DNA from: Candidatus Bathyarchaeota archaeon
GTDB lineage: Archaea > Thermoproteota > Bathyarchaeia > Bathyarchaeales > DTEX01
Direction: 5' to 3'
Length of the DNA: 64,000 bases
NCBI GenBank assembly: GCA_963714275.1
Contig: CAVQNT010000002.1
Span: forward strand, 416,001-480,000
The translations under genes were made by a program, and so were the position numbers. Shown here in pieces: positions 58,402 to 60,133 of this stretch. Within the stretch, counting starts at the first letter, position 1. The number at the start of each line of letters is the position of its first letter. A model generated the notes under the pieces. The model made no database searches and was not told where the DNA came from. It saw nothing but the letters and a program-made list of their open reading frames with translations.

Positions 58402-58770
58402 TTAGGTTTGAGCTTCATAGGATTTACCGAGTGATTCTTTGGCTTTTTCCTTTAGTTCCTTTATTTGGTTAACGGTTTTCATGACTTTTTCGAAGAGGTC
58501 TTTGCGTGCGTTTATGCCCTCTTTTATGAAGAACGCTGTGGCTTCGGACCTGCTTTTGAAGACTTCTACCTCGACCAGTGCGTCTATTTTGGCTAGGTCG
58601 TCGTCGTTCAACCGTGTCATTACGACATTTTCTCTGCCTTCAAGCCCGTGTCCAAGTTCCATTATGATTTTCTTGCCCATTTTGTGGGTCAAGCCGTGAT
58701 GGTCTCCATCGTGACAGCACATTACGATGCATTCCTCGTCTTCTTCTTTCTCTGTCTCTTTTTCGCCCAT
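58402..58770 (-). CDS. Ribbon-helix-helix protein with Cys/His-rich N-terminus
   Basis: NVVMTRL...IDALVE...FKSRSEA.AF.I.EGI. Confidence 0.75.
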   Translation of the reverse strand: MGEKETEKEEDEECIVMCCHDGDHHGLTHKMGKKIIMELGHGLEGRENVVMTRLNDDDLAKIDALVEVEVFKSRSEATAFFIKEGINARKDLFEKVMKTVNQIKELKEKAKESLGKSYEAQT

Positions 58771-58903: not shown

Positions 58904-59443
58904 TTACGCATAGACCTTTAGTCCTCTGGATTTTATGGGCTCAATGACATTCGGTTGGCTTATGGCTACGAGTAGAACGTAGCCGATCACAGCGATTGCG
59001 ACTAAGCTACTGAGGGTGATGCTGACAACCATTGCCGTCCAAGGCTGAAGCGGCACTCCAAAAATGTCAGGCGGAGGAACAAAGATCCACAGGTATCCGC
59101 CAACGATTGCTCCTACGATTAAGGATGCGAGTATGCAGCCTAGAAGCTTCCTTTTCCTGAACGCGAAAATCATTAGGGTGGCTATGAAGTTGGCGACTGA
59201 ACCGAAGACAACATCGAACAGATTCAACGATCCGAAGGCTATCATGCCTCCAACAGCATTACCGACCAGGCATCCTAATGTGGCTCCCCAGACAATAGGC
59301 CAGCCGAATAACGCTGCAAGGGGTAGCAGGCAGTCTGCTACTCTGAGTTGGATGGGTCCTGAGGATATGGGTGCCAGAAAAATGACGAGAACAGCATATA
59401 AGCTTGCGAAGACAGCAGATAAGCTAACGGTTTTGACGTCCAC
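58904..59443 (-). CDS. queT: QueT-family transporter (queuosine/archaeosine precursor ECF S component)
   Basis: A.LY..L...LAPIS.GPIQLRVAD.L, G.TLGC..GN, DV.FGS.A. Confidence 0.88.
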   Translation of the reverse strand: MDVKTVSLSAVFASLYAVLVIFLAPISSGPIQLRVADCLLPLAALFGWPIVWGATLGCLVGNAVGGMIAFGSLNLFDVVFGSVANFIATLMIFAFRKRKLLGCILASLIVGAIVGGYLWIFVPPPDIFGVPLQPWTAMVVSITLSSLVAIAVIGYVLLVAISQPNVIEPIKSRGLKVYA

Positions 59444-59448
59444 TCTTT

Positions 59449-59513
59449 TACACCTCCAACTCCGGGATTTGTTAGGCGGAACGGGTGGAGGTGACTTCCA
59501 CTCACCCGCCGTT
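59449..59513 (-). promoter_or_regulatory. Structured 5' leader of queT, candidate riboswitch
   Basis: Stem GGCGGGUG/CACCCGUU, anti-SD CACCUCCA complementary to SD UGGAGGUG, hairpin UCCG/CGGA; BRE-TATA CGAAAATTTTATTAA just upstream. Confidence 0.55.
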
Positions 59514-59624
59514 GACTACAACAATGGTTGACGATTAATAAAATTTTCGTAAATGATGTTTTATCATAAAAACAGTCTAAATGGAGAGTTGGAAAATAAG
59601 AGAAAAAATTGTAAAAAAGGGTGG

Positions 59625-60005
59625 TTATGTGATTTTGAGTTCTGTGCTTTTTTGGGCGCACTCTTTGTAGTTCTTTAGAGTGATTTCGATAAGTTGTTTT
59701 ATGTGGTCTTTAGTTTGGATTCCAACAGCAGTAGCAAGAGGTTTACCTGAGCAGAAGAAAATGACTGTCGGGGTGCTCATGACTCCGAGGTGGAGGGCGA
59801 TATGCTGGTTTTCGTGGCTTTTAAAAACGTTCAGGGTCGCGAATTTGGCTTTGTCTTTGTATTCTTCAGCGACCTCGTTAAAAATTGGGGCAAGCCTTAT
59901 GCACCATGGGCATTGTTCGTGCCAGAAATCGACGACAACCAAGCCTTCAAATTTTAGGACTTCCCCTTCCCAATTGTCTGAGCCAACTTCTAAAACACTG
60001 CTCAC
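59625..60005 (-). CDS. Thioredoxin
   Basis: VVVDFWHEQCPWC, GVMSTPT; SD GAGGTG before GTG 60005. Confidence 0.9.
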   Translation of the reverse strand: MSSVLEVGSDNWEGEVLKFEGLVVVDFWHEQCPWCIRLAPIFNEVAEEYKDKAKFATLNVFKSHENQHIALHLGVMSTPTVIFFCSGKPLATAVGIQTKDHIKQLIEITLKNYKECAQKSTELKIT

Positions 60006-60133
60006 GTAGTTCACACCTCACGTACATTATTAAAAACATAGGTTTTCTGAATTATATAGACAATCATGGCACAGAACAATCCATAAACCCTTTAATAAAC
60101 CTGAAAAATTTGTTATTGAACAAGGAATCCTTG

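Follow-up and report, generated by a model that had tools for sequence, protein, structure and literature searches.

The window, by which we mean the whole stretch of 64,000 nucleotides that was analysed, contains on its minus strand an open reading frame for 179 amino acids (58904–59443) whose product matches the QueT family with high significance (PF06177, E 3.1e-27, 96 bits at a cut-off of 33.7). The same protein had no match at E 1e-5 among the NCBIfam models. Upstream of the queT leader lies a thioredoxin gene (59625–60014, PF00085). Downstream, queT is adjoined by an open reading frame for 122 amino acids (58402–58770, minus strand) with its own SD-like GGAGAGG; its Pfam matches, to a ribbon-helix-helix family (PF01402, 16.7 bits) and to DHFR_1 (17.3 bits), stay below the respective cut-offs of 20.5 and 25 bits. 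An earlier note, made from the letters of this DNA, had described a structured leader in front of queT. We found its minus-strand reading and coordinates to be correct throughout, and every pairing that it listed is present in the sequence. The parts of the leader, as we now define them, are the following.

59535..59549, minus strand: BRE/TATA-like promoter element CGAAAATTTTATTAA, consisting of CGAAAA and TTTTATTAA; seen in the sequence
59510–59444, minus strand: queT leader, 67 nt; from the sequence
59506..59510, minus strand: 5′ strand of helix P1, GGCGG; pairs with 59475–59479, covariation
59494..59505, minus strand: loop L1, GUGAGUGGAAGU, with a conserved GUG(A/G)G start followed by a variable part; alignment A4
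59487..59493, minus strand: CACCUCC, the anti-SD side of the pseudoknot helix, identical in letters to the 3′ tail of 16S rRNA; covaries with 59451–59457
59480..59486, minus strand: loop L2, ACCCGUU, in which CCG is conserved, as is a U ahead of P1; alignment A4
59475..59479, minus strand: 3′ strand of P1, CCGCC; covariation with the 5′ strand
59458..59474, minus strand: loop L3, UAACAAAUCCCGGAGUU, A-rich and then AAA(C/U)CCC(GG); alignment A4
59451..59457, minus strand: Shine-Dalgarno (SD) sequence GGAGGUG, doubling as 3′ strand in the pseudoknot helix; complementarity to the 16S tail, covariation
59441..59450, minus strand: spacer UAAAAGA (59450–59444) and GTG start codon (59443–59441); from the sequence
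58904..59443, minus strand: queT, substrate-binding component of an ECF-type transporter, QueT family, 179 aa; PF06177

The promoter-like element CGAAAATTTTATTAA is separated from the start of P1 by 24 nt. When 89 distinct upstream regions from other loci were aligned at the first base of P1, an A-rich segment appeared at −40 to −35 and a T/A-rich segment at −34 to −27. From this BRE/TATA-like signal we infer that transcription would start 2–5 nt before P1. Since the signal keeps a fixed distance and the predicted start precedes the structure, the transcript is probably not leaderless. At the other end of the leader, GGAGGUG stands 7 nt before the GTG start codon of queT. The 16S rRNA of this genome ends in ...GGAUCACCUCCU; therefore GGAGGUG is a full SD sequence, and the leader segment UCACCUCC copies the anti-SD of the ribosome. 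As the SD is itself the 3′ strand of the pseudoknot, the expression platform is coupled to the candidate aptamer. The window contains GGAGGTG no more often than expected (5 matches, 5.4 expected), and an SD-like 5-mer precedes a candidate start in 19 of 76 long open reading frames compared to 13 of 76 in a control window, so that SD use in this genome looks weak and not general.

Across the 89 loci, the first canonical in-frame start codon (TTG in 36, ATG in 25, GTG in 15) falls 3–10 nt past the SD strand in 69 cases. By the rule used, 13 loci have no canonical start, and four of these have an ATG that abuts the SD strand. In several QueT genes (loci L008, L029, L168, L171 and L019, also L027 and L207), the usual start position 5–9 nt past the SD is occupied by ACG (5 loci) or by ATT or CTG, with no in-frame ATG, GTG or TTG before the conserved N-terminus. 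This observation suggests non-canonical initiation behind a strong SD.

As a single sequence, the leader folds with a minimum free energy of −26.1 kcal/mol (z −1.23), and 25 of 200 shuffled sequences fold equally well. Because this result is no better than chance, the significance of the leader derives from comparison across genomes. A search with the QueT protein gave matches in 35 of 41 related genomes. Of 30 loci retrieved by way of the protein alone, 28 carry the motif upstream of QueT according to a covariance-model search; QueT identity in these protein-anchored loci falls as low as 37%, and long stretches of the leader are identical nonetheless. The two loci in which this search found no motif, L026 (genome G011) and L022 (genome G016), are QueT genes from within the window's own family, and L026 has a different GC-rich leader that likewise starts with GGCGGGTTGAG.

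When each prokaryotic species, represented by one genome, was scanned with an exact pattern, at least 119 stretches were returned. Seven of them (L035, L051, L070, L102, L122, L131 and L138) are chance matches in GC-rich bacterial DNA that show no SD features. By their titles, the other matches listed come from MAGs of Bathyarchaeia or Bathyarchaeota, from Methanomethylicus or Methanomethylicota, and from 'Nitrososphaerota', together with a single MAG each from Promethearchaeati and 'Methanocella' and two MAGs with bacterial labels. A typical motif followed by QueT occurs on contigs of MAGs labelled Acidiferrales, Patescibacteria and Methanocella (L101, L103 and L108), and these labels are likely the result of mislabelling or mis-binning. 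The two bacterial-labelled contigs with the motif look archaeal, and all other finds are in archaeal genomes. We had considered Halobacteriota as a further phylum, and rejected it: the 'Methanocella sp.' MAG (L108) yields the phylum sample that was also obtained for the genome of the window, and therefore adds no further phylum.

Genomes were then sampled with two covariance models (R1 and R2). Within the class of the window, Bathyarchaeia, the motif was detected in 92 of 151 sampled genomes and in 71 of the 95 high-quality ones, mostly as one copy per genome. The phylum sample gave 28 positive genomes out of 151 by covariance model. Beyond Bathyarchaeia it includes the families f44 (9/15), f56 (3/3) and f60 (2/2), and the model found no motif in the sampled members of f38 (0/19), f42 (0/13) and f47 (0/13). 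A second archaeal phylum, that of the Promethearchaeati-labelled MAG, contributed 15 of 121 genomes at lower scores (30–57 bits). The genome of the window itself contains one strong match (80.7 bits), and its next best match scores 19 bits. In total, the genome collections provided 180 distinct 85-nt instances.

With this material we could examine the fold. The main structure test used alignment A4 (90 distinct rows) and 500 shuffles. On A4, 97.3% of the cells in both helices are paired compared to 84.5% after shuffling, and the covariation score is 0.353 compared to 0.144; none of the 500 shuffles reached either value, although kinship among the sequences inflates such tests, and the model behind A4 and its companion A2 includes the pseudoknot helix and so favours it, whereas P1 was never in the model. 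Sliding the pairing partners reduced the score to 0.03–0.07. Because the A4 model contains the pseudoknot helix, we repeated the count on A1, a MAFFT-only alignment of 27 protein-anchored leaders: 93.4% of cells are paired compared to 88.4%, with a score of 0.194 compared to 0.102 (both 0/500). A mutual-information scan with average-product correction returned P1 and the pseudoknot as the only top pairs; it gave no tertiary pairs beyond these two helices, and most loop columns are invariant and give no signal. These orthologous leaders, whose collection the earlier note had proposed, are strongly conserved, and its central claim, a pseudoknot leader that would sequester the SD of queT through pairing of CACCUCC with GGAGGUG and would probably sense preQ0 or preQ1, is supported by each of the computational checks that it had suggested, the anti-SD/SD helix covarying on A4 as well as on A1.

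P1 is only 5 bp long; two of its pairs are invariant in A4 and one varies on one side only. Position 1 is occupied by GC in 61 rows, AU in 18, GU in 7, CG in 1 and UA in 1; position 3 by CG in 88 and UG in 1; position 5 by GC in 86 and CG in 3. The anti-SD/SD helix shows changes on both sides at 5 of 7 pairs in A4, a count to which a one-base register shift (CCUCC versus CUCCC) contributes in part. Its variants include CACCUCC/GGAGGUG, UGCCUCC/GGAGGCA, CCUCCC/GGGAGG, GUCUC/GAGAC, CCACC/GGUGG and UCCGAC/GUCGGA, and CCUCG/CGAGG in the second phylum. However, 6 of the 180 distinct instances have four or fewer contiguous pairs between the loop and the 3′ strand.

Two further helices had been proposed in the earlier note, and neither survived the comparison. 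Its closing stem was an 8-bp pairing of GGCGGGUG with CACCCGUU, and GGCGG/CCGCC had been listed there as a mere competing pairing. The 8-bp stem has no double changes and fails in variants with GGCGC/GCGCC; the stem that covaries is the 5-bp GGCGG/CCGCC, which is P1. The proposed auxiliary hairpin, UCCG/CGGA, lacks covariation, makes use of P1 nucleotides and is lost without compensation in CCCCAA variants; at its three CCG/CGG pairs, 9, 5 and 1 of 71 rows are unpaired. Taken together as helices of the folded state, the 8-bp stem and the CCG/CGG hairpin are paired in 94.5% of cells, which equals the shuffles (94.4%; 281/500), with no double changes. Either element may still have an alternative role in the unbound state. 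Since P1 covaries, and since the auxiliary hairpin clashes with P1 and shows no covariation, we assign the leader a plain H-type topology. Covariation thus supports a predicted H-type pseudoknot of two helices, P1 and the anti-SD/SD helix.

In the loops, about 20 unpaired positions are conserved in at least 90% of the A4 rows. In L1, this holds for the G-U-G right after P1, and the remainder varies in length and sequence. In L2, it holds for the CCG..UU columns, for which we found no pairing partner with covariation support. L3, which consists of an A-rich part and AAACCCCGG, has its A, AAA, CCC and GG columns conserved at this level; GG is replaced by AA in 6 of 90 rows with no compensating change. 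A set of some 20 conserved unpaired positions is typical of a ligand pocket.

Which genes stand behind the motif? According to an HMM-based count, 89 of 90 distinct loci have a QueT-family open reading frame no more than 700 nt downstream, and 27 of these loci had themselves been found through QueT; the remaining locus lies at a contig end. A scan of 31 downstream open reading frames identified QueC (PF06508, E 1e-62 to 1e-68) directly after QueT in 10 loci (L205, L159, L162, L172, L212–L215, L218 and L015), and in L015 the motif is followed by queT′-queC-queT. Four leaders of the pattern set are followed by a gene for a radical-SAM protein. For the three of these reading frames that were compared with NCBIfam (L044, L086 and L090), the five best matches are all QueE models, and we call them QueE on these scores (96–105 bits, below the equivalog cut-offs of 200–300 bits, for reading frames cut by the locus end) together with operon context. 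Two operons have the order motif-queE-queC (L237 and L238), and a third (L231) reads motif-queE-GATase-QueC fusion-DUF2848, with the fusion at 739–2190 (483 aa) and the DUF2848 protein at 2240–2911. We take such a GATase-QueC fusion to be one of the proposed archaeosine-forming enzymes. Among the loci scanned, the directly downstream genes belong to no other pathway and include no purine-metabolism genes. The motif thus marks a 7-deazaguanine regulon comprising queT, queT-queC, queE-queC and queE-GATase-QueC, and the link between the queT leader and 7-deazaguanine metabolism that the earlier note had drawn holds for operons with queE-queC and queT-queC as well.

A DUF998 membrane protein (PF06197) is encoded directly after queT in L166, L167, L177 and L168, and by the third gene in L172. 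This protein may be an unrecognised partner of the QueT transporter.

The gene content of these genomes bears on how the precursor of archaeosine may be supplied. The substrate of arcTGT is preQ0, and its insertion into tRNA is a step towards archaeosine. The genome of the window contains a TGT (207 + 60 bits). This genome, which is 91% complete, yielded no real QueC, the best match being 28 bits and confined to the N-terminal part, and for QueE nothing better than E 4e-4. As it has a TGT but neither biosynthesis enzyme could be identified convincingly, the organism seems to rely on precursor salvaged by way of QueT. The TGT match, which lies outside the window (G000:C1:8854-9826), is split: PF01702 positions 3–257 are followed by 257–356 in an adjacent reading frame, which could be due to a frameshift or to an error of assembly, or could mean that the gene is split. 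In five genomes with queT-queC (G184, G191, G226, G007 and G113; 93–98% complete) we found QueD in none, and the QueE model gave only generic radical-SAM matches of at most 30 bits. As neither QueD nor a clear QueE was found, these organisms may import 7-carboxy-7-deazaguanine (CDG) through QueT and convert it to preQ0.

Based on conservation, covariation and gene context, we consider it probable that the queT leader, a well-supported candidate, is a translational OFF riboswitch of an undescribed class that responds to preQ0 or to a closely related 7-deazaguanine. We infer both the ligand and the direction in which control is exerted, and the mechanism would be as follows. Aptamer and expression platform would together take up the entire 5′ UTR of queT, about 70 nt in length, which would begin a few bases upstream of 59510 (minus strand). 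P1 (GGCGG/CCGCC) would close a loop, the 3′ part of which, CACCUCC, would pair with the SD GGAGGUG, and the junction of the two helices would hold a pocket built by GUGAG from L1, CCGUU from L2 and AAACCCC from L3. With sufficient 7-deazaguanine in the cell, the ligand would bind at this junction and lock the pseudoknot, stabilising the anti-SD/SD helix. The SD would then be unreachable for the ribosome and no QueT, or elsewhere QueE and QueC, would be made, so that import and synthesis would both be subject to feedback repression. The most likely ligand is preQ0, a logical feedback signal because it is the common end product of the queT, queT-queC and queE-queC operons. A more specific version, which we favour slightly over its negation, is that no riboswitch class restricted to Archaea was known before this one: the motif would be a 'preQ0-I' aptamer with its own fold that senses preQ0 and shuts off translation by covering the SD with a segment copied from the 16S tail, with a range comprising Bathyarchaeia, Methanomethylicia-like lineages and the phylum of the Asgard-labelled MAG.

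The same fold could also sense a different molecule, such as CDG (the substrate of QueC), preQ1, archaeosine base, or guanine or another purine. Passages of a 2024 review report that known preQ1 riboswitches also bind preQ0 (PMC11625349), and the 10 queT-queC loci, with five such genomes that may import CDG for want of QueD and a clear QueE, make CDG a serious alternative ligand. Nevertheless, all operon types found lead to preQ0 as their end product, and no purine-metabolism genes were seen downstream in the loci scanned. To our knowledge, archaea do not make preQ1. We regard a ligand other than preQ0 as unlikely.

It is also rather improbable, in our judgement, that SD sequestration by this fold answers to a protein, be it arcTGT, another enzyme of the archaeosine pathway or an unknown RNA-binding regulator, with the conserved loops as its binding site. 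Conserved unpaired nucleotides are equally expected of a protein site, and AGUGG in L1 presumably resembles the tRNA D-loop around G15, the target of arcTGT. However, many instances have GAGUAA, GAGAAA, GGUUGG or GGAGG in place of AGUGG, and a second GA, as a k-turn would need, is absent; both a D-loop mimic and a k-turn were rejected on these grounds. Moreover, the element is kept across two phyla and in front of differing downstream genes with no co-occurring regulator gene adjoining, and in its compactness and its A-rich L3 the pseudoknot is similar to established aptamers for small molecules. A leader that acts with no ligand at all, masking a very strong SD by constitutive attenuation of translation, as an RNA thermometer or as a stability element, would need the anti-SD/SD helix alone, which is the best-supported helix, and would agree with the unremarkable single-sequence energy. 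Yet it would leave unexplained the roughly 20 near-invariant unpaired positions and the separate covarying P1 across two phyla, as well as the restriction to genes of one pathway at one copy per genome, and we consider it very improbable.

If the reading as a preQ0-responsive riboswitch is true, the motif would be a new structural solution for the recognition of 7-deazaguanines, compact, abundant and almost only in archaea. It would add a rare archaeal case of riboswitch-controlled translation initiation by way of the SD, and would mean that archaea have native riboswitches of the SD-sequestering kind. Such an element could be used directly as a genetic switch in archaeal systems, and it would mark the genes for archaeosine-precursor supply in uncultured lineages, including genomes that seemingly live on salvage. 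Finally, it would point to an economy in which 7-deazaguanines are widely salvaged and in which CDG may be imported through QueT-QueC.

A comparison with all 4227 families of Rfam 15, including preQ1-I, preQ1-II and preQ1-III, gave no family match to the leader, which agrees with the impression in the earlier note that the sequence does not follow the preQ1 consensus. Only chance-level matches appeared (mir-1281, PrfA and SECIS, E 2.7–9.9), and 20 diverse instances of the motif gave no match at the gathering score. For preQ1-II (RF01054), nothing was found at E ≤ 10 in window positions 59300–59700, and the best match elsewhere in this genome reached 17.5 bits with a gathering score of 47. In the full-text literature, with subscription papers and some supplements outside the scope of the search, we found no description of an archaeal riboswitch for preQ0 or preQ1. 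The 2024 review, in the passages available, describes three preQ1 classes and makes no mention of archaea (PMC11625349).

The class closest in function is preQ1-II (the COG4708/queT motif of Streptococcaceae and relatives), which likewise stands before queT and has the SD in its pseudoknot helix; in the passages available, its SD strand pairs with the loop of the 5′ stem and it is thought to control translation only (PMC11625349). The earlier note had proposed a preQ1-II-like topology. The SD within a pseudoknot before queT stands, whereas the auxiliary hairpin does not: preQ1-II forms an HLout pseudoknot with an embedded P4 hairpin between the stem and the SD, the archaeal motif has no supported P4, and in this respect it is nearer to an enlarged preQ1-I. 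The conserved nucleotides also differ, the hosts are archaea instead of Bacillota, and the likely ligand is preQ0 instead of preQ1.

With preQ1-I (RF00522), which is about 34 nt in size, the motif shares the H-type fold, a P1 of about 5 bp and an A-rich L3 right after the 3′ strand of P1, and preQ1-I likewise controls queT and que biosynthesis genes. The archaeal motif measures 67–75 nt, about twice as much, and its L1 and L2 are long and conserved. According to the same passages, the 3′ strand of preQ1-I overlaps or adjoins the SD, and the base immediately preceding the 3′ strand of P1 is a specificity C (the 'AC'/'UC' motif; PMC11625349); in contrast, the archaeal motif has a U at this place in at least 90% of rows. 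preQ1-III (RF02680) also occurs before queT and senses a 7-deazaguanine. It is described in these passages as about 100 nt long with five helices and an SD far from the pocket (PMC11625349), traits in which it differs from the archaeal motif, and its covariance model gave no match to the leader. Excerpts from a survey indicate that archaea use few known riboswitch classes, chiefly TPP and fluoride (McCown et al. 2017, PMC5473149). These are likewise cis-acting metabolite sensors in archaeal leaders, but unlike the motif they belong to classes that are common to bacteria. The motif described here belongs to neither preQ1-I nor preQ1-II, and functionally it would work like preQ1-II.
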